Source: a virus
DNA length: 64,000 nt
IMG/VR virus record: IMGVR_UViG_3300001202_000001
Strand: one strand, 5' to 3'
A program made the position numbers and the translations under genes. Every line of letters begins with the position of its first letter. Position 1 is the stretch's first letter. Positions 1-63,814 of the stretch are shown one piece after another. The notes below the pieces were generated by a model. That model searched no databases and had not been told where the DNA came from. It was given only the letters and a program-made list of their open reading frames with translations.

Positions 1-3000
1 AGCTGCTTCTGCTGCTGCCCTAAAAGTAGAAGTTTGATTAACATTAGTTAAAGTTGTTGCTACATCTGACGTAGTTTGCACAGCACTCTGTTGAGCGATA
101 GTGGCAGAAGCATCTGCTTCAAATTGAGCAGTAATATCTTCCAACCTAAGTTCATCAATAACAGCCTGACCACTACCATCAGGGTCGTTGAAAATTGCGA
201 CCAACCTAACAAAAGCAGTGTTCGGTCTAAATTCGTTATGGCTAGTATCACCTTCACCAGTGATAATACCCTCTCTGGTTTCCCATGCTCCGTTAGCAGC
301 AGCAGAGCCACCTAAATATCTATGAGTACCTACACCAGAAGATAGTACATTACCTGCGCTATCATAAGTAGCCAGACCTAAATAGGTTCTGTATTGACCA
401 CCATTCATAGTTACTTGCTTAAAGCGCATGATAGCTTTGTATCTGCGAGACGTATCTACAGGGTAAAACTTAGTTGAGTAAACCCATGCTCTTTGGGTAC
501 TATCAATTACACCAACTCGACCTCTTGCTCCTGCAACTGTGTCAGATGCAATAGGTGAGAAAGCAGAAGGGTGGTCTCTAATAGTTTCCTCGCTTTCTGC
601 ATAAGCTCCAGAACCGCCTTTGAAAAATACTAGACTTTCATCTGGAGATTTCATGTAAGGGTCACCTGAAATATCGAGAGTAGCTAGACGTGTAGAAGCT
701 GAAAGCTGAGCACTTGTAGCAGCACTAAGTGAGAAACCTTCTGCGCCATTTCTTGCAACCACAGCCGCAGCCTGAGCCGTTTCTGCGCCACCTCGTGCTG
801 TTTGAGCCAACGCTCTTTCATTGCTAGCTGTTTGAGCTTCTTGAGCCGCAGAAGTTTGAGACGCACTAGCAGAATTAGCACTAGATAATGAGGCAGCAGC
901 TTCTGCCGCAGATTGATTTCTAAAAGTTTCAGCTTCGTCCCTACGGGTTGTAGCTGTTAATGATGCTGCTTGTGAAGCGTTAGCAAAATTCTGTGAATCC
1001 GTTACGTGTCCAGATGTGGTTGTTACGTCAGCCGCTGTTGCCGCAGCGTGTCCTTGAGCGTCAGATTCCAAGTTAACAACTTGCTGATGTAAGGTAGTGA
1101 CATTGGCTTCTGCGGCTGTAGTTGTATCACGAGCCGAAACAGTTGTGTCTCTAGCTGCTTCCGCATCTGCTCTTGCAGTTTGAGCAGCCAACCTATCCTG
1201 TTCAACAACATCAGCAGTTTGACCCACTGCTGTTTGAGTAGCTAATACCGCAGTCAAGGAATCTGCTGACGCAATAGCAGAAGCTTCTGAAGCTTGCCTA
1301 TTAGTAACATCATCAAATTTAAGAGAGTCAATATAAGCTGTACCTGTGCCTCCGTTATGATTAACGATGAACATAAGGCGCACAAATGCTGTTCCTGCTC
1401 TAAATTGAGTAACACCATCACCTACACCTTCAATGATTCCTGTAAAATCTTGGAAATCTGTACCTGACAATAAGGCATTGTTAGCAGCAAAATATCTATG
1501 TGTACCTGACCCACCAGTAATAGCATTAAGGGAATCATCAAGGGTAACTAAACCAGCGTAGATTCTATTATTGTTTACATTAGCGTCCGCGATATGTTGC
1601 TTAACTCGGAAAGCCAGTTCGTATTTGCGAGTAGGGTCTACAGGAATGACCTTGGTAGTATATAACCAATAGTTACCTTGAACGACTGCTACCTTACCTC
1701 TAGCCCCAGCTACTCCTGTTAAGGAAGTAGGGTTGATATAATTCGGATGCGCTCTCACAGTGGCTTCATCACCTGTATAGATTCCCGAACCATTACTACC
1801 TTGGAAGTAGTACAAACTATTTTCAGGGTCTGACATATAAGGGTCTAAATCAGCATCAATAATATCTAACTGGATAGCTCTCGACTCCAGCACATCTTGG
1901 ACTACCTCTGCCGCTGAATTATTTATGATAATTTCTTTTGCATCAATTCTGGCTTCAGCATCAGCAACCTGAGTCTGTGCCAGTTGTGCTGCATCTCTAG
2001 CCGCTAAAGTGGAGGAAGCATTGTTAGCAGAATTGTTTTCAGAAATTAACGCTGCTGCCGCAGAGTCTGCTGCACTTTGAGTGTCTCCATAAGTATCTTG
2101 TAATGCCTGAATGTCGGCTTCAATATCAGAAACCAGACCAGTTACGATTTCTTGAGTAGTTACGATGTTGGCTTCATAAGTTACTTCGATGATAGGAGAG
2201 GATTGATTACCAAATACATCTAAAACTTGATAGGCAACATAATTAGTCCCATCCTCAAAAGTTAAAATAGGAGTACCATCTCTGTTCCATTGTAAACTAC
2301 CAGATGTATTGGCAGATGAACTTTGAGAAACCCAAACTTTTACACCTCTATAATCGGTATCTGATACGTCATCAAAAACCATTGTGCCTCTGGTAGACCC
2401 ATTTTGGGGAACATTGAAAGCAACATTAGCCAAGGTAATCACTGGTTTTTGTACAGAACGGGTAAAGGTACTTCCTTCATTACCTTCTGCATCAGATACA
2501 CTGACTACGACAGAGAAGTTTCTAATATCTGTAAGTCCAAAACCGTTAAAGTCAGAATAAGGAATCTCTAATTTTTTATTTTTCCAATCCGCAACCTGAT
2601 AAGTATGAACGATTGACCCATTTGTTGGGTCAACTACATCTACTTCAAACCATGCGAAATCTGGATGGGGCTTATCAGAAGCCCAACCTTCCCACTTCTC
2701 TGTAGTATCAACAGACCACTCTAAAGAAACATTACGCCCAATATAGGTTGTGTCTGAATCTTTTTTATTCTGAATAGTGACTCCTGTGATTGAGGGTAGG
2801 CCGTAGAATGGGGCGACTGTAGTTACTCGTGTTCTAACAATTTGAGGAGATTCAGAACCATCTACATTAAGCGCGTTGACCGCGAATAAATGTGTACCTG
2901 CGTCTACAGCAGCCATGCTGAATTGTTGTGCTGAACCTCTAAAGATTTCACGAGATTGACCATCATTGAAAGTGTATTTAACAGAATATTTACCACCAGC

Positions 3001-56004: not shown

Positions 56005-58538
56005 TTATACCACAAGACATTCTTATCGACGCAAGAAACGTAGATGAAATGTTACCCAAGTTAATGGAAGAGTTTGAACCTTCCGACACAAATGGTTTTG
56101 ACCTTGAGACTTTCGACAAGGCTCACGATGCTTTGGCAGCATACTGTAAGTCTAAGCGAAAGCTAGTGTTTGACATTAACAGAACTAAAATCACAGGCTT
56201 CTCTATCTATGCCAAAGATAATAGTCAGAGCTATTACTTCAACATCTTCCACAAGGATGTAGAGAATAGAATCCCACTTGAGAAAGTAATCCCATTACTT
56301 GACCTGCTGACTCGTGAGGATAAACTTTTGATTGCCCACAATTCAGTGTTCGAACTGACCATGACAAAGATGGTGTGGGGTTATGACCTGTGCCGAAATG
56401 ATAACGTAATCTGTACCATGATTATGGCCGTAACAGCTTACAACCCTGATGAATACAGGATTGAAGACTTTACAGAGCAGCGTATGAAACCAATGGCTCC
56501 CCTGTTAAAGGATATTAAGGAAGCTTTCACTCCTGATGCGGAAGGTAATTACCCGACATACAATCTCAATGAGGAACAGAGAAGAATCATCGGACAGGTT
56601 GCCTCTAAGACTTCCACTTCCACTTTCAGTTACAATGGTATGGTGAATAACATTACCTTCACCTATGGCTTAAAGAGAATGGTAGAGAGATTCTTCGGAC
56701 ACAAGATGCAAACCTTTAAAGAGACACTAGAAGCTGGTAACGCTGCTCACATGGGAGAGCTAACAGGTGAGCAAACATGCTCATACGGTGCTGATGATGC
56801 GTTTTGGGCTGTGAAAATCTACGACCACTTGTTTAACTACATGCTGAACTCAAACCCGAAGGCTCTACAAACTTTCTATACTCAAGAGAACCCTATGGCC
56901 CAACACTACAGCCAAATGTGGGCTAACGGTATGCAAATTGACCAAGAGGCAGTTGCTTCAAGCATCCAGAGAGAGCGTAAGGCTATGGCTCAAATCCTAA
57001 GAGACCTCAAGGTAGCTATCAAGGGAGCACTTCCGTTTCCTGATGAATACAATGAGGCCATGTTGAAGCATAACAAAATCTATCGTAACAACTCTGACAA
57101 ATACCGTCAGGCTATTATAGACTTCTCTAACTTACCTGACAGTGACGACGACTACACTATGGTAAGACAAGTGAAGTCAGCGATTACAAAGGCATGGTCT
57201 CAAGAGAAAGGTGACAAGGAATCTAAGTCAGTCAACCTCAACTACTACGTCACAATGCAGACAGTGTTGTATGACCTTCTACAGTTGAAGCCACAGTACA
57301 ACCAAGGTAAGTTAACAGCAGATAAAGATGCCCGTCGTAACCTAGCTGACGCGAACAAAGATGTTCCAGTTATCAAGACTCTAACGAGCTTGAGTAGGGT
57401 GGAACAGGCTGTGTCTCTATACCTGACGCCTTACTCTGCTCTTATCAACCCAACCACAGGTAAGATTCACCCTGTAGTGTCGTCAGAATTGGCTACAAGA
57501 CGCCTTGCAATGAAAGACCCTAACGGTATGCAACTGGCTAAGAGAGGGGAGTCTGTGTACATCAGAGGCTTCTACCTTCCAGATGAACCAGAGCATGTAA
57601 TCATTTCACTAGATTGGTCACAAGTCGAACTGGTTTTGATTGGTGAGCTTTCAGGAGACCCTGAATTTGCTGCTTGCTACAGTAGTGTACCTTATGAAGA
57701 CCTACACTCGGTTGCAGCCGCACCTCTAGCGGCTAAAATGGATAAGGTTCCATACACTCTTGAAGAGTTCAAGGCTCTTGAGAAGAAGCTATACAAGAAA
57801 CACCGTAACGAGCTAGGTAAAGGTTCCAACTTCGAATACTGGTACTCTGGTGGCCTATGGACACTTGCTACTAAGTTAAAACTATCCTTCGAGGATGCTA
57901 AAGAGCTTGCACAAAGATACGCTGACAAGTTCCATGTCGCAGAGGCATGGAGAAAAGGTGTAATCATGGACGCAGCTTTGAACGGACACATAGAGCTACC
58001 AGATGGTACAAGACGTGTACGCTTCGAGTCCACAGCAGAGTGGAAGAGATTGATGCAATCATTCTTCGCAGGACACCCAGCAGTGAAAGCCTTTGGTGAG
58101 CAAGTCATTCGCAAGATTCAGAAGCGCTCTGGTAACCAAGCTGTTAATGCTTTAATCCAAGGTAGCTGTGCTACCCTAGCTAAGAGAAGCGCAGAACGCA
58201 TCGTTAAAGAGTGTAAGAAGCGTGGATTAAGAGTTAGGTTTATGATGCCTATTCACGACGAGCTTGTTTGGTCTGTACACAATGAAGATGTGTTAGAGTT
58301 CCTAGCAGTCGCGAGACAGTGTATGACAACTCACCCTGATATTATTTCTAATTTGGTGCTTGACTGTACAGCATCAATAGGTAATACTTTCCGTCCATAC
58401 GATAAAGAGAACGCCCCATTCGGGCAAATCGAATTGGACGAGTTGCCACTTGAGTTCTGTGTAACCACAGAGGAAGAGGGTAGAGCAACCGAGGAAGAAA
58501 CTAAGGCAGTCGTAGACTACCTGATGAAAGGAAAATAA
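55992..58538 (+). CDS. Family A DNA polymerase with 3'-5' proofreading exonuclease
   Basis: 848 aa. Exo motifs FDLETF, HNSVFEL and YGADDA. Pol motif A SLDWSQVELVLIG, motif B KGSNFEYWYSG and motif C PIHDELVW. Confidence 0.9.
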   Translation: MERVIIPQDILIDARNVDEMLPKLMEEFEPSDTNGFDLETFDKAHDALAAYCKSKRKLVFDINRTKITGFSIYAKDNSQSYYFNIFHKDVENRIPLEKVIPLLDLLTREDKLLIAHNSVFELTMTKMVWGYDLCRNDNVICTMIMAVTAYNPDEYRIEDFTEQRMKPMAPLLKDIKEAFTPDAEGNYPTYNLNEEQRRIIGQVASKTSTSTFSYNGMVNNITFTYGLKRMVERFFGHKMQTFKETLEAGNAAHMGELTGEQTCSYGADDAFWAVKIYDHLFNYMLNSNPKALQTFYTQENPMAQHYSQMWANGMQIDQEAVASSIQRERKAMAQILRDLKVAIKGALPFPDEYNEAMLKHNKIYRNNSDKYRQAIIDFSNLPDSDDDYTMVRQVKSAITKAWSQEKGDKESKSVNLNYYVTMQTVLYDLLQLKPQYNQGKLTADKDARRNLADANKDVPVIKTLTSLSRVEQAVSLYLTPYSALINPTTGKIHPVVSSELATRRLAMKDPNGMQLAKRGESVYIRGFYLPDEPEHVIISLDWSQVELVLIGELSGDPEFAACYSSVPYEDLHSVAAAPLAAKMDKVPYTLEEFKALEKKLYKKHRNELGKGSNFEYWYSGGLWTLATKLKLSFEDAKELAQRYADKFHVAEAWRKGVIMDAALNGHIELPDGTRRVRFESTAEWKRLMQSFFAGHPAVKAFGEQVIRKIQKRSGNQAVNALIQGSCATLAKRSAERIVKECKKRGLRVRFMMPIHDELVWSVHNEDVLEFLAVARQCMTTHPDIISNLVLDCTASIGNTFRPYDKENAPFGQIELDELPLEFCVTTEEEGRATEEETKAVVDYLMKGK

Positions 58539-58539
58539 A

Positions 58540-58722
58540 ATGACCTTACTAGGTTACACATGGACAGCTATCTTTAGTTTTGTTTGTTTGTTCTGGAGCT
58601 TATGTTTTGGTGCATTCTTCGACCATGAGTTCCTAGATGTGGTCGCTATAGTATCAGCATCGTACCTCGGCTTCATCGTATGTCCTTTGTACAGGGCGTA
58701 CAAATATGAAACCAAACAATAA
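58540..58722 (+). CDS. Small membrane protein
   Basis: 60 aa with two hydrophobic helices, 1 nt after the polymerase stop. Confidence 0.45.
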   Translation: MTLLGYTWTAIFSFVCLFWSLCFGAFFDHEFLDVVAIVSASYLGFIVCPLYRAYKYETKQ

Positions 58723-59179
58723 AGGTAAAGAGGTTGAAACTCTATTCCAAACAACGCTAGAGACTGCCTTTAAAAAGGCAGTCTTTATCGAAAGATTTAC
58801 AGACACGGCAGATGCAACTGCTAAAGCCAATGGGCGTGGACGTAGGACAGGACGTAAGAAAACTGTCGTTATAGTCGAGGCTCAACCCGCAGACTTTATG
58901 GTGACACTCAATGGTGTCACTGCCTACACAGAGGTAAAGGACTGCAACAACAAGACGTCGTTCCCCTTCGGCAACATCACAACCAGCCAAATGAATGCGG
59001 CTAAGAGACAAGTGGCTGCAAAGGGATTATACTTCTTCGTTATTCATCATCAAGGACAATGGCACTGTGTTCCTGCCAAGGTTATCCTTGAAACAACGAC
59101 TAGGAAGTCTCTCCCTTGGAAAGACTTACAACCCTATCAGTTGAAGAAGCTGGTAGATATTAAAAGGTACTTTAAATAA
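58706..59179 (+). CDS. RecU-like PD-(D/E)XK nuclease / Holliday junction resolvase
   Basis: 157 aa. PADFMV...TEVKD (D...E.K core), FPFGNITTSQ and GLYFFVIH resemble the RecU layout. Confidence 0.55.
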   Translation: MKPNNKGKEVETLFQTTLETAFKKAVFIERFTDTADATAKANGRGRRTGRKKTVVIVEAQPADFMVTLNGVTAYTEVKDCNNKTSFPFGNITTSQMNAAKRQVAAKGLYFFVIHHQGQWHCVPAKVILETTTRKSLPWKDLQPYQLKKLVDIKRYFK

Positions 59180-59772
59180 TGGCAAGACACGGATTAAATC
59201 CAGACACATTCAATAAACATGGTGGCATGACCGACATTATGATTGATATTGAAACAGACGGGCTTGACGCTCGTAAGAATAGCATGGTTCAACTCGCTGC
59301 TAAGAAATTCAATTTCAAGACAGGCCAGATTGGTGATGATGTATTCATCGCTAACATCAAACCACTAGAAGGAAGGGTACAAGACCCTAATACAATGGAG
59401 TGGTGGTCTAAACAAGACGCAGCCATTAGAGAAGGTGTGTTTGAGAATCCTCTTGACGCTAAGCTAGTAATGGATGCCTTTGCAGATTGGTGCTACCCAC
59501 AAAATACGCTACACTTTTGGGGTAAACCTACACACTTTGATTTCGTTTGGATTCAGTCCTACTACGAAGAACTTCAAATCCCCATGCCATTCCATTATAG
59601 AATGGCTAAAGATATGAACAGTGTTATTACAGGTATGTACCATCCAAAGGACAGACCTCCTGATTCAGAAGTTCCCTATAAGGATATTGGTGGAGCACAT
59701 AACGCATTGAGCGATGTGATTAACCAGATTTCGGAGTTACTTGCACATGAAAAACACGCACGAACTTACTAA
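59179..59772 (+). CDS. DEDDh (DnaQ-like) 3'-5' exonuclease
   Basis: 197 aa. ExoI MIDIETDGL and ExoIII GGAHNALSD. Confidence 0.75.
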   Translation: MARHGLNPDTFNKHGGMTDIMIDIETDGLDARKNSMVQLAAKKFNFKTGQIGDDVFIANIKPLEGRVQDPNTMEWWSKQDAAIREGVFENPLDAKLVMDAFADWCYPQNTLHFWGKPTHFDFVWIQSYYEELQIPMPFHYRMAKDMNSVITGMYHPKDRPPDSEVPYKDIGGAHNALSDVINQISELLAHEKHARTY

Positions 59773-60751
59773 TGGTGGTAAGCTACTAACCATTGGTGAC
59801 CCACACTTAGGGCGTACATTCACTACGAATGTGCCTCTTGAGTTCAGGGGCATCAGGGAACAACAGCTAAGAGATAGATACACAGAACTATTGAACACGC
59901 CAGACATGAACTACATCTGTATGATGGGCGACCTGTTTGACGAGTTTGATGTTCCTAATGATGTAATCCTGTTCGCATGGCAGACCTTAATGACAGCAGC
60001 ATTGGCTAACCCCAACACTATGTATATCTTCAACAGAGGTAATCACGACGAGTCTCGTAACACGTCTCTGAAATCCTCATGGGCTGTGTTCAAAGAAATG
60101 TCAGACCGAGCAGGTCTAGTTAATGTTAAGGTGATGGGAGACGATGTAGAGGTTATTGGTAAAATTGGTATCGTACCTTGGCATCCTTTCCACTCACCAG
60201 AAGAAATGGTATCAAATCTAATTGGTTATATGGAAGCAGCCAACTGGCCGTGTGTGCTAGATTACGTGTTAACTCACAATGATGTTAGCACCTATGGTTC
60301 AGACCACGACCCTCAAAACCTAATGGATTTCAAAGGTTTAGCTAAACTAACTGATGTAGTCCTCAACGGCCACGTCCACGTAGCAGGAGAACTAGAACCA
60401 ATAGAAGGTCTCAAAGTAATCAACACAGGCTCTATGATGCCTCTCAATTTTGCAGAGGATAAGACAGGAGATATGTTTGTGACCTTAACCTTGGAGCAAT
60501 TCAACAAGGTAGATACCAAAACACTTGAGGGTAAGTCCGTGAGAGTTTTATTGAAACCCGATGATGAAGCTCCAGACCCAATCAAATGTCTACAATTTAA
60601 AGTAAAACGAGTAAGCGAAAAAGGAACAGAAGAAGTAGGAGAGGTTAAGCCAGAAGATTTTGAATTAAAAACTCTGTACGACACAGCTATGACTGGAGTT
60701 GCTGACCCTTTAAACACAGAAATTTGGGAGTCCATCAAGGACAAATTATAA
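59741..60751 (+). CDS. SbcD/Mre11-like nuclease
   Basis: 336 aa. Metallophosphoesterase motifs GDPHLG, GDLFD, GNHD and NGHVH. Confidence 0.8.
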   Translation: MHMKNTHELTNGGKLLTIGDPHLGRTFTTNVPLEFRGIREQQLRDRYTELLNTPDMNYICMMGDLFDEFDVPNDVILFAWQTLMTAALANPNTMYIFNRGNHDESRNTSLKSSWAVFKEMSDRAGLVNVKVMGDDVEVIGKIGIVPWHPFHSPEEMVSNLIGYMEAANWPCVLDYVLTHNDVSTYGSDHDPQNLMDFKGLAKLTDVVLNGHVHVAGELEPIEGLKVINTGSMMPLNFAEDKTGDMFVTLTLEQFNKVDTKTLEGKSVRVLLKPDDEAPDPIKCLQFKVKRVSEKGTEEVGEVKPEDFELKTLYDTAMTGVADPLNTEIWESIKDKL

Positions 60752-60752
60752 T

Positions 60753-62501
60753 ATGTTCCAAACACTAAAGTTTGAGGTTCAATTTAAGAATCCTCGCAAA
60801 GGACACAGTGGAAACTTTAAAGATAGTCATACCTTCAAAAAGGGTATGACTTTAATCTACGGTGCAAACGAAAAAGGTAAAAGCCTTAGAGCCGAGTACC
60901 TACGGTTTGCCCTATGGGGAAGAAAAGCCCTACGAGGTAAGGTCAGCGACTATAAGAAGCTGGTTGTAGATGTAGAGTTTCAACTGAAAGGAGTGGATTA
61001 TAGAATCCATAGAACCAAAAGTGATGCAACAATTTACCAAGGTGGCACGCCTATGGCTACAGGAACAAGTCCAGTTAACGATAAGATTGAAACTCTATTC
61101 GGATATGACATGGAAGTGTTCGACCTAGCCAATGCTGTATTGCAGGGTGAGGTAGAGGCACTAGGTAAGATGCAACCAGCAAGGCGTAAAGCCTTGGTTG
61201 ATAACCTGATTGGCTTAGGTGTTATAGACAGTACAATTAAAGACCTTGTGGAGACACGTAAGGCTTCCAAGGTGGCTCTAGCTACTCTTGAGTCTAATCT
61301 TATTGAGCCAGAGAAACCCAGTGTTTCACTAACACTAACAGAAGACGAAATCGTAGACTTCCCAAAGGTTAAACAGGATTATATCCGAGGATTAGCCATT
61401 GATAATGAACTACTTGGTCTTGGTGTTAGTCAACCAGAGAAACCAGAACCTTCTTATGATTGGGGTTTAGCTGAAATGTTCTCTGAATATCATCAACTCA
61501 TGCTGGCTCACGATGTAGCGGTTAAGTACCTTAATCGTATGCCAGATGTAGACGATACAGGTATGACCTTAGACGAGATTAGGGAAGCCTACACACAGGC
61601 TCTATCCTACGAGGCTTGTGAGAACGTAGAGTGTCCAGAGTGTGAGCACACATTCAACCCCTCGGGTTTTGAACAGCCTAAGCTAAGCTCTAAACAATGC
61701 GTAGCTCTAAGAGAACAGCAGCAACAGTTTAACCAATGGGTAGAAGCTAATGAAGCAGCCGTTAAAGCAGAGGTAACCCTGAACGATTACCTTGATGGTG
61801 CTAGCGCAGAAGCTATTGTAGCAGCTAAGAAAGGTGCTGACACTTATAAACAGGCTTTGATTGTTTATGATATGGCTCTCAAGGCTAATGAAGTATCAGA
61901 GAAGCGTAGACAGAAGCTAGAACAGGAACACATAAACTTAATCAAATACTCTGGAGATTTCAGAGAATATGAGAAAAAGTACAATGAGACCTTGACAGCA
62001 GCCCAACTTATCAGGCAGTATGATACCTATAAAAAGGCGTATGACACCCAGTTGGAAAAGGTGGAAACGCTCCGAGCGGAAGTAGAGAATTACGATACTG
62101 CCATTGTCGGTTTGAGAAATCTAAAGACGAGCATTAAGTCTTACCTTGTTCCAAGTTTGAACAAAGTGGCTTCTGCCTATCTGTCTCAAATGACCGATGG
62201 TTCACGTAGCTCTGTAGTTATTAGTGAGAACTTTGACATTGTAGTCGATGGACAACCAATGGAAGCACTCTCTGGTTCAGCGAAAGCTGTTGCCAACTTA
62301 GCTATCCGTCTAGCCCTTGGGCAGACGCTAACGAACTCTGTTTTCTCTGTCCTAATGGCAGATGAAATTGATGCCGCAATGGATAAGGAAAGAGCGGATT
62401 ACACAGCTAAGTGTCTCCGCAAATTGACTGGTAAGATTAAACAAATCATTATTATCAGTCATAAGAAACTTGAAGCAGATAATTACGTGGAGTTAACGTG
62501 A
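60753..62501 (+). CDS. SbcC/Rad50-like ATPase
   Basis: 582 aa. Walker A GANEKGKS, central coiled coil with CxxC hook (CPECEH), signature LSGSAK and Walker B LMADEID. Confidence 0.8.
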   Translation: MFQTLKFEVQFKNPRKGHSGNFKDSHTFKKGMTLIYGANEKGKSLRAEYLRFALWGRKALRGKVSDYKKLVVDVEFQLKGVDYRIHRTKSDATIYQGGTPMATGTSPVNDKIETLFGYDMEVFDLANAVLQGEVEALGKMQPARRKALVDNLIGLGVIDSTIKDLVETRKASKVALATLESNLIEPEKPSVSLTLTEDEIVDFPKVKQDYIRGLAIDNELLGLGVSQPEKPEPSYDWGLAEMFSEYHQLMLAHDVAVKYLNRMPDVDDTGMTLDEIREAYTQALSYEACENVECPECEHTFNPSGFEQPKLSSKQCVALREQQQQFNQWVEANEAAVKAEVTLNDYLDGASAEAIVAAKKGADTYKQALIVYDMALKANEVSEKRRQKLEQEHINLIKYSGDFREYEKKYNETLTAAQLIRQYDTYKKAYDTQLEKVETLRAEVENYDTAIVGLRNLKTSIKSYLVPSLNKVASAYLSQMTDGSRSSVVISENFDIVVDGQPMEALSGSAKAVANLAIRLALGQTLTNSVFSVLMADEIDAAMDKERADYTAKCLRKLTGKIKQIIIISHKKLEADNYVELT

Positions 62502-62920
62502 ACGTACAACAAGCAAAAGCAAATGTAGATGCTCTCCTGCCAAAGCAGCGAGAAGAACTACAAACCCTCTTAATCAGAGGTAAGGACTACCTACACGTAG
62601 CTCGGAAGTTAAAGATTTCCACAACCACGGTTCGTAACTTCGATATTATTACCAATGGTAGGTATGTCGTTAGTGAGGATGGTTATGGTAAAGTCTCTAT
62701 GAGAAAGTATATCATCAGTAGACGTTACATTGACCAAGAGTGGCCAGCTATGGATGATGTTGTTATCGAGAACACCCGTAAGGATTACGATGCTGGTAAA
62801 GTAGAAATGGTAACAGGCCGTGATGGTTTTTATCAACTTCTTTATAGAATCCCACGCACACGAATTGATAAGAAACGGAAACCATATTTTGAGGGAGTGA
62901 ATGATGCAACAATATCTTAA
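62498..62920 (+). CDS. HTH protein (sigma region 4 / LuxR-like N-terminus)
   Basis: 140 aa. GTG start in a GTGA overlap. [35 protein letters not shown]. Confidence 0.5.
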
Positions 62921-63797
62921 TCTATTAAAAGATATTCAAGACAACGGCGTCTTCACTGGAGACCGAACAGGGACAGGCACACAGTCTGTCTTTGGTCGCC
63001 AGTTACGCTTCGACATGAAAGATGGTTTCCCTCTGCTAACCACTAAGAAGCTCTACACTAGAGCCATTATCCATGAACTCCTATGGTTCATCAGTGGTTC
63101 CACTAACACTAAGTATCTCACTGACAATGATGTGAATATTTGGAATGAGTGGGCTGACGAAAACGGAGACCTTGGGCCTGTGTATGGAGCGCAGTGGAGA
63201 GCTTGGCCTAAAGGTGAGAGTTGTACCACTTGCTATGGGTCAGGTAAACTAAACGACGCCGAGGCGGGAGACATTTTCTATGATGAATGGGATTGTCCTG
63301 ACTGCAACGGTAGGGGTGAGTTTGTTGTAGACCAACTAGCACAAGTGATTGAAGGAATTAGGACTAATCCTAATGGTCGTCGTCACATCATTAGTGCATG
63401 GAATGTACCACAGATTCAAGACATGGCTCTACCACCTTGTCACTGCCTAATGCAGTTCAAGGTGTATGGGGATAAGTTACACCTCCAACTATACCAGCGT
63501 AGTGCTGACGTATTCTTAGGAGTGCCATTTAATGTTGCATCCTATGCACTTCTACTAGGTATGGTTGCTCAAGTGACAGGATTAAAAGCAGGTGAATTTA
63601 TCCATACCTTTGGAGACGTTCATATTTATAACAATCATCAGGAACAGGTTACCGAACAGCTAACACGGAAGCCTTATATGAAGCCTACGCTTCTATTAAA
63701 TCCTGATGTAAAGGAAATTGACGACTTTACATTTGATGATATTGAGATTAAAGGCTACACAAGCTGGCCCTCAATCAAAGGCGAAGTGTCAGTCTAA
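62901..63797 (+). CDS. thyA: Thymidylate synthase ThyA with Cys-rich insertion
   Basis: 298 aa. [25 protein letters not shown] (catalytic Cys), [23 protein letters not shown]. Carries an extra 33 aa relative to E. coli ThyA after RAWP. Confidence 0.9.
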
Positions 63798-63814
63798 CAT
63801 AAGGAAAATTTAAA

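Follow-up and report, generated by a model that had tools for sequence, protein, structure and literature searches.

A predicted zinc-knuckle domain grafted into a loop of a phage thymidylate synthase

The 64-kb stretch of viral DNA analysed here (hereafter the window) encodes a thymidylate synthase (TS, ThyA) in which a short loop has given way to a cysteine-rich module related to a family of tiny phage proteins and predicted to bind zinc. The parts are already known, namely ThyA, the DnaJ-like zinc knuckle and the PHROG family; what appears to be new is the graft of a folded, zinc-type domain in ThyA. On balance, and with modest confidence, I favour the joint reading that this is a working phage enzyme which has undergone a recent swap of a loop cassette and carries a 32-residue Cys4 zinc-knuckle graft, whose added role would lie in protein contacts, catalysis being unchanged. 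Among the roles considered, one at the surface, in protein contacts or in surface identity, seems most likely, its main rival being a passenger that the enzyme tolerates.

The gene and its parts are as follows.

62901-63797, plus strand: thyA coding sequence, 298 amino acids plus stop, assigned by its PF00303 match and by matches to TS structures in the PDB.
62901-63197, plus strand: N-terminal TS core, residues 1-99, with invariant columns in a 62-sequence alignment and 98.3% nucleotide identity to the sibling contig L001.
63198-63329, plus strand: swapped cassette, codons 100-143 (RAWP, KGES, the zinc module and EFVV), delimited by a blastn break and by DNA alignments.
63222-63245, plus strand: predicted zinc knuckle 1, CTTCYGSG (C108 to G115, with C108 and C111), its C, C, G and G columns being invariant in the module family.
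63246-63293, plus strand: acidic beta-hairpin spacer of 16 residues with the signature [ND]DA[ED]xGD[IM]x[YF]xxW, defined by family column frequencies and strands predicted by AF2.
63294-63317, plus strand: predicted zinc knuckle 2, CPDCNGRG (C132 to G139, with C132 and C135), on family-invariant columns.
63330-63794, plus strand: C-terminal TS core, residues 144-298, with invariant columns and a constant +34 offset to E. coli numbering.

Judged by its residues, the open reading frame (ORF) is a complete ThyA that keeps all catalytic and substrate-binding positions. The Pfam family Thymidylat_synt (PF00303) matches the product end to end (E = 6.9e-115; 383.2 bits, the curated cut-off being 24.3 bits; profile positions 1-266 of 266), and solved bacterial TS structures match it with a best E of 2e-108, in blocks comprising residues 2-105 and residues 138/143-298. 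A second ATG at 62904, which is the start used by the database protein P0001, gives a 297-aa product, and a Shine-Dalgarno-like run, GAGGGAG, lies at 62891-62897, 5' of both ATGs (62901 and 62904). The start of thyA overlaps by 20 nt an upstream ORF of 140 amino acids (62498-62920).

The hallmarks of ThyA, in E. coli numbering, are the Cys within P-C-H, the Arg residues that bind the dUMP phosphate (R21, R126', R127' and R166), and Y94, H147, D169, H207 and Y209; the catalytic Cys, the phosphate-binding Arg and the Tyr/His/Asp set are all present in the window protein. With respect to the E. coli ThyA sequence used, which is identical to PDB 1aob, residue numbers are offset by +1 before the insert and by +34 after it, and these offsets cover the catalytic and ligand-binding residues. 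In the N-terminal core R22, E59, W81, W84 and Y95 correspond to E. coli R21, E58, W80, W83 and Y94, and they are invariant in alignments of 26 and of 62 ThyAs; after the insert the same holds for R160, R161, C180, H181, Q199, R200, S201, D203, N211, H241 and Y243, the catalytic C180, in PPCH, being encoded by codon 63438-63440. Asn177 of the E. coli enzyme accounts for uracil specificity, dCMP hydroxymethylases having Asp there; the window protein has an Asn at this position (N211, in PFNVASY), as expected of the ThyA type.

Between RAWP (residues 100-103) and DQL (residues 144-146) lie 40 amino acids, where E. coli ThyA has seven, TPDGRHI. The first-pass annotation of this DNA had reported as much, and the comparison holds with the PDB-verified sequence; its central claim, a ThyA with an in-frame insert bearing two exact CxxCxGxG motifs, is likewise borne out by the PF00303 match and by a six-frame motif scan, the 40-aa peptide spanning 63210-63329 and not 63210-63326 as it had been given there. 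The two motifs are the only copies of CxxCxGxG in the window in all six reading frames, and the number of such pairs expected by chance within 40 amino acids is 1.6e-7 at the window's own residue frequencies (Cys 1.1%, Gly 6.2%). Within ThyA the zinc core amounts to 32 residues with four linker residues on each side. In the AF2 model, where the TS core has a pLDDT above 90, short paired strands at 102-103 and 142-143 flank the insert, which would thus replace the tip of a beta-hairpin. An Rfam search around thyA returned zero matches at E up to 1; an intron, an intein or an RNA element as the nature of the insert is ruled out by this blank, by the reading frame and by its match to a protein family.

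That family is phrog_6060, whose profile the 40-aa insert alone matches with E = 1.2e-11 and 45.4 bits (profile positions 13-47 of 61). A HMMER search with residues 90-162 against 1.84 billion cluster representatives gave 143 matches, mostly proteins of 56-130 amino acids with the same 32-aa core, for example P0125, which has seven 5-mers in common with the insert. Core identity to family members reaches 66%, and 69% by tblastn. The family core reads CxxCxGxG-xx-[ND]DA[ED]xGD[IM]x[YF]NxW-x-CxxCxGxG. An alignment of 87 sequences has six invariant positions (four Cys and two Gly) and further positions conserved at 90% or more (D20, G24, D25, G38 and G40 in alignment numbering), every one of which is retained by the window insert; family column frequencies stand at 100% for D12 and G16, 99% for D17 and 86% for W23.

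A tblastn search with the insert retrieves 225 phage records, most of them from T5-like phages of Salmonella and Escherichia or from Salmonella phage 7-11, in which the stand-alone copies are separate ORFs of about 60-70 amino acids among tRNA genes and small hypothetical ORFs, a neighbourhood that gives no clue to function. Examples are the 61-aa bobsandoy_106 of Salmonella phage bobsandoy and gp136 of Salmonella phage 7-11. Spacing and signature of the 32-residue core are identical to those of the window insert; the phrog_6060 proteins, however, are products of their own genes, about 56-130 amino acids long, located in accessory or tRNA regions of T5-like and other phages, and they possess an N-terminal helix (MSxYxxxLxxL), whereas the window has the zinc core alone, embedded in an enzyme loop. 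The insert is thus, as far as sequence can tell, a domain homologous to phrog_6060 and, taken as a gene, no member of that family, since it neither stands alone nor has the N-terminal helix. Some members bear the automatic label 'anti-termination protein Q-like', which goes back to a distant resemblance to lambda Q in its zinc region, as reported for Acinetobacter phage Loki gp45 (PMC5313236).

Modelled by AF2 with the family alignment, the core reaches a pLDDT of 91-92 and has a beta-hairpin between the two knuckles (strands at fragment residues 17-19 and 30-32). In the full-length model, computed with a ThyA-only alignment, residues 106-139 have a pLDDT below 50, so that model does not show how the module is oriented on the enzyme. 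The best viral fold matches of the module are stand-alone proteins (E = 1.4e-4; TM 0.73-0.78). Against the PDB, the best 44 Foldseek matches are all Cys4-zinc modules, namely the UvrA zinc finger, lambda Q, the cysteine-rich domain of DnaJ (1exk, 2ctt) and BSD2, with E-values (0.14-1) that are weak because the module is so small. Zinc binding, as a prediction from homology and modelling, is well supported, and C108/C111 together with C132/C135 would bind one Zn2+.

The cysteine-rich domain of DnaJ has four CxxCxGxG repeats and two zinc centres, and lies between the J-domain and the client-binding domain at the C-terminus. In the corresponding Pfam family, DnaJ_CXXCXGXG (PF00684), it is repeats 2-3 that the insert matches (profile positions 16-55 of 65), below threshold both for the whole protein (23.7 bits) and for the insert alone (27.2 bits; cut-off 32.7). 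No J-domain was found by Pfam in the window protein; CxxCxGxG repeats number two instead of four, in the protein and in the window, and one zinc centre is predicted where DnaJ has two. Anti-TRAP (PF15777) is also matched below threshold (19.1-21.5 bits against a cut-off of 32) and is absent from the Foldseek neighbours, in which DnaJ, BSD2, UvrA and lambda Q are present. The match to lambda Q covers 36-46 aligned columns of a 143-207-residue protein (E = 0.15-0.4), and the body by which Q binds DNA and RNA polymerase has no counterpart in the insert. What all these proteins have in common with the insert is the CxxCxGxG knuckle and zinc held by four Cys; the insert differs in that it has neither a J-domain nor a client-binding domain and lacks the setting in which those proteins oligomerise or bind DNA. 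The description of the module as DnaJ-type in the first-pass annotation therefore stands in part: the knuckles are related, as the sub-threshold Pfam match and the Foldseek matches to 1exk and 2ctt indicate, yet the module is a phrog_6060 domain with one predicted zinc centre and not a DnaJ domain.

Redox-active Cys4 zinc centres exist, and the four Cys, which lie close together and are arranged much as in DnaJ, might by analogy suggest a redox or metal-sensing switch, in which oxidation or loss of zinc would unfold the module and modulate the stability or activity of ThyA. There is no sign of communication between the loop and the active site, however, and the site tolerates large unrelated inserts (see below), hence such a switch seems very unlikely.

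The module is not confined to ThyA and to stand-alone genes. A case in point concerns P0192, a phage family-A-like DNA polymerase of 723 amino acids, in which the same module, with the same sub-family signature as the window insert (NDxExGD, CETCRGGGVLNDGEPGDIYVNHWKCPDCYGTG), is inserted at residues ~146-177; its nearest relatives are Ralstonia phage polymerases at 38-39% identity. Along the same line, family-A DNA polymerases of HMO-2011-type marine phages have as a hallmark a 'partial DnaJ domain with two CXXCXGXG motifs' (PMC9038755). In both cases a two-knuckle, DnaJ-like module lies in frame within a phage enzyme of DNA metabolism; the carrier, however, is a DNA polymerase and not a ThyA, and for HMO-2011 the likeness consists in the two CXXCXGXG motifs. 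Together, the ThyA insert and the polymerase modules indicate that such modules have entered phage DNA-metabolism enzymes repeatedly. Fusions to other domains also occur, to a ClpX-type zinc finger in P0123 and next to a weak, sub-threshold DUF551 match in P0185; P0218 and P0236 combine the module with unannotated N-terminal regions, and P0173 and P0208 are also among the fused cases. The zinc-knuckle module is promiscuous.

E. coli and human TS regulate their own translation by binding their own mRNA. The module might accordingly be imagined as a nucleic-acid-binding appendage, which would bind either the thyA mRNA, for translational autoregulation, or DNA, tethering the enzyme to the replisome; its nearest folds include the UvrA zinc finger, which contacts DNA, and the zinc region of lambda Q, and the same module is found in phage DNA polymerases. 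Against it, the core is strongly acidic, with a net charge of -5 in the window module (mean of the phrog_6060-type family -3.1, range -8 to 0), the conserved signature D/N-D-A-E-x-G-D comes without conserved basic residues, and neither an Rfam match nor another RNA element is seen around thyA. RNA or DNA binding is disfavoured by the acidity of the module, and I consider this appendage unlikely.

As for its site, the insert had been equated with the known 50-residue insert of Lactobacillus casei TS. This proved wrong: in alignment A4, the L. casei insert falls some 16 residues upstream, between WDEWA and GDLG (the L. casei and human TS sequences were checked to be identical to PDB 1lca and 1hvy). 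Mammalian TS have insertions of 12 and 8 residues at positions 117 and 146 (PMC5929524). The human 12-residue insertion at 117 shares the L. casei site between WDEWA and GDLG (alignment A4), and the module takes the place of the hairpin tip formed in E. coli TS by T103-H108, which is the site of the human 8-residue insertion at 146. All are surface insertions in variable regions that leave the catalytic core intact; those of L. casei and mammals differ in that none is a recognisable independent domain or metal site. No solved TS structure in the PDB search has the insert, and the literature searched yielded no description of a ThyA with a zinc module; within both, the earlier remark that such a module was not known to be described holds true. 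ThyA is among the best-studied enzymes, and none of its lineage-specific inserts is known to be tied to an independent domain or a metal site.

The loop between QWR and [IV]DQ[LI] is an insertion hot spot of ThyA. Its length is the canonical 9 residues in 203 of the 237 measurable ThyAs that were fetched, and in about 30, mostly phage-like, there are unrelated inserts of 13-89 amino acids (e.g. P0220, P0215, P0256, P0211 and P0081). A second large insert occurs after FQFY in P0215, P0220, P0256, P0195 and L046. The predicted 240-aa protein P0126 consists of three successive ThyA segments, GP[IL]YGKQWRSW...DQI...NPDSRRLMVNAWNVGELG, each with a different loop insert, which may stem from tandem duplication or from faulty assembly of the hypervariable region.

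The history of the window loop can be read against a sibling phage. The contig L001 (89 kb) has the same gene order as the window, namely DNA polymerase A, RecU, exonuclease, SbcD, SbcC, the 140-aa ORF and thyA, and by blastn it is 98.3% identical in nucleotide sequence over 56901-63204 and 94.6% over 63329-63806, with no similarity at 63205-63328. Divergence begins right after W99 and ends before D144; in this interval the window has 44 codons and L001 has 30 unrelated ones (RGYLGARERNDYLQGDMRNGKESRPYLEKT). Flanks of 98.3% and 94.6% identity around an unrelated loop indicate that the module came by a recent cassette swap. In the usual loop of this clade the sequence starts R-x-Y-L-G-A-[KR]-E (P0002, P0003, P0005, P0008 and P0023), whereas the window has RAWP, like canonical ThyAs, which marks the window state as the derived one; among close relatives of the window thyA, three different loop versions are found. 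Codons 100-143 would therefore have been replaced as a whole, and recently, in the window lineage; most likely, the imported patch derives from another thyA allele in which the module was already present, and the exchange took place through the strongly conserved flanking motifs GPVYGxQW and DQLxxVI. On the 3' side of thyA, similarity to L001 is lost at about 63806, and a similarity of about 81% to the more distant L003 continues until 63948; this downstream loss, together with the lower identity to L001 after the cassette (94.6% against 98.3%), shows signs of mosaic recombination around thyA.

A loop that accepts many unrelated inserts of 13-89 amino acids is compatible with plain tolerance. 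The main rival to a contact role builds on this: the module would be a neutral passenger, a self-folding unit with adjacent termini that illegitimate or homologous recombination brought into a tolerant loop, without function, its fold being kept since misfolding would harm the enzyme. I regard this as a genuine, yet clearly lesser, possibility. It is favoured by the hot spot itself, by the three loop versions among close relatives of the window and by the plentiful supply of donor DNA, the module being a separate gene in the 225 phage records. The rarity of the module-bearing form, with one match in IMG/VR, one in JGI metagenomes and none in GTDB, points the same way.

Besides the window, two contigs carry the module-bearing form.

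L046, 414-1196, minus strand: module-bearing thyA ORF.
L126, 2778-3836, minus strand: ThyA with an N-terminal extension of about 55 residues, GRNGGV for the usual DRTGTGT, and a module spacer of 12 residues, not 16.

L046, a 270-kb IMG/VR viral contig, encodes a ThyA with the module (...QWRSWPTPVKCETCGGTGKCNDADFGDVSFNEWTCPKCKGRGNEGIDQI...) and was met among the matches listed for a loose DNA pattern, QW followed by two CxxCxGxG (at least 120 matches listed), after an in-frame filter. It is also the sole IMG/VR match to the tight pattern QW + CxxCxGxG + NDA[ED]xGD, which retrieves one contig from JGI metagenomes, L126 (...QWRSWETNTRCPRCYGTGSRNDADLGDMWKCEACLGSGNASVDQI...), and has zero matches in 185,579 bacterial and archaeal species genomes (GTDB, one genome each). 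With a ThyA-anchored pattern free of the NDA requirement, L046 alone is found in IMG/VR and nothing in the species genomes; the Cys module occurs in no ThyA among the 143 representative matches or the 247 fetched ThyA-like proteins. When the three module-bearing fragments were combined into a profile, the homologue search yielded only ThyA fragments shorter than 150 amino acids, none with the module, and missed the window protein itself; a word-index search with the insert alone gave no candidate, though its relative P0125 exists. Looking for the same insertion in phage and bacterial ThyAs, as had been proposed for this DNA, thus adds two phage ThyAs, so that the window protein is not unique, and none from the 185,579 species genomes. 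Module-bearing ThyA is rare and so far restricted to phages.

In L046, a group I intron (205-450, minus strand; Rfam RF00028, 53 bits, cut-off 50) interrupts thyA right after ...SCQLYQR, where the called ORF stops. The predicted ThyA fragments P0220 and P0256 also end at QLYQR, so other phages may have an intron at this very site. The N-terminal extension of the L126 protein could be due to a wrong start. The neighbours of its gene, RecU, exonuclease and SbcD, are 30-38% identical to those of the window, which makes the L126 phage a distant relative of the window phage.

The three module-bearing ThyAs fall in three clades of a neighbour-joining tree; their core identity is 47-54%, and each is 64-95% identical to module-free ThyAs. 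Their modules are about 55% identical in nucleotide sequence, with all fold-defining residues kept, a level at which a recent transfer among the three is ruled out. The retention of the fold residues at this divergence implies purifying selection on the fold of the module, which could merely reflect the cost of a misfolded insert and not an added function. All three share identical junctions (8 residues after W99, 3 before [VI]DQ), which points either to lateral spread of the cassette via conserved flanks or to a strong structural constraint. A neutral passenger sits uneasily with the exact same junctions in three clades at 47-54% core identity, with the conservation of all family-invariant residues, the exposed acidic hairpin signature included, at about 55% nucleotide identity, and with the recurrence of the module in phage DNA polymerases.

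The exact protein of the window is on record from one contig only, and its loop differs abruptly from that of the sibling L001; an assembly chimera, or a decaying ThyA past its function, might look like this. The gene is nonetheless in frame, free of stops and intact in its catalytic residues, its insert agrees with a real protein family in all of the invariant positions, and two independent contigs from other studies share the architecture, all of which makes such an artefact exceedingly doubtful.

A bolder possibility, speculative and rather improbable, is that the NDAExGD knuckle serves as a portable 'docking tag' and the loop as a surface of an arms race or of assembly, an in-frame cassette having moved between enzymes of DNA metabolism (ThyA in at least three lineages, and DNA polymerase). 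The tag would recruit these enzymes to a common partner, a host or phage factor that would also be bound by the stand-alone proteins of about 60 amino acids; alternatively, the module would hide or alter a surface recognised by host defence. Either would explain both the full replacement of the loop in a 98% identical gene and the recurrence at identical junctions.

To return to the preferred reading of a surface contact module on a working enzyme, the ends of the module would lie side by side, so that it could slot into the hairpin and leave both the TS fold and the active site undisturbed, while the 16-residue acidic hairpin would project away from the enzyme. Each protomer would thereby expose a rigid, zinc-stabilised and negatively charged knob, changing the protein contacts of the enzyme surface or its recognition, with dTMP synthesis unchanged.

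To sum up, three or more distinct clades of phage ThyA carry the graft, which reached them either through separate insertion events or through lateral spread, and a loop has taken up a complete folded domain against a 98%-identical background, so that the window allele and the P0002 allele of the sibling form a natural pair. If the module mediates contacts, it would open an approach to the organisation or protection of dNTP synthesis by phages, and would provide a widespread family of tiny phage proteins with its first lead on function.
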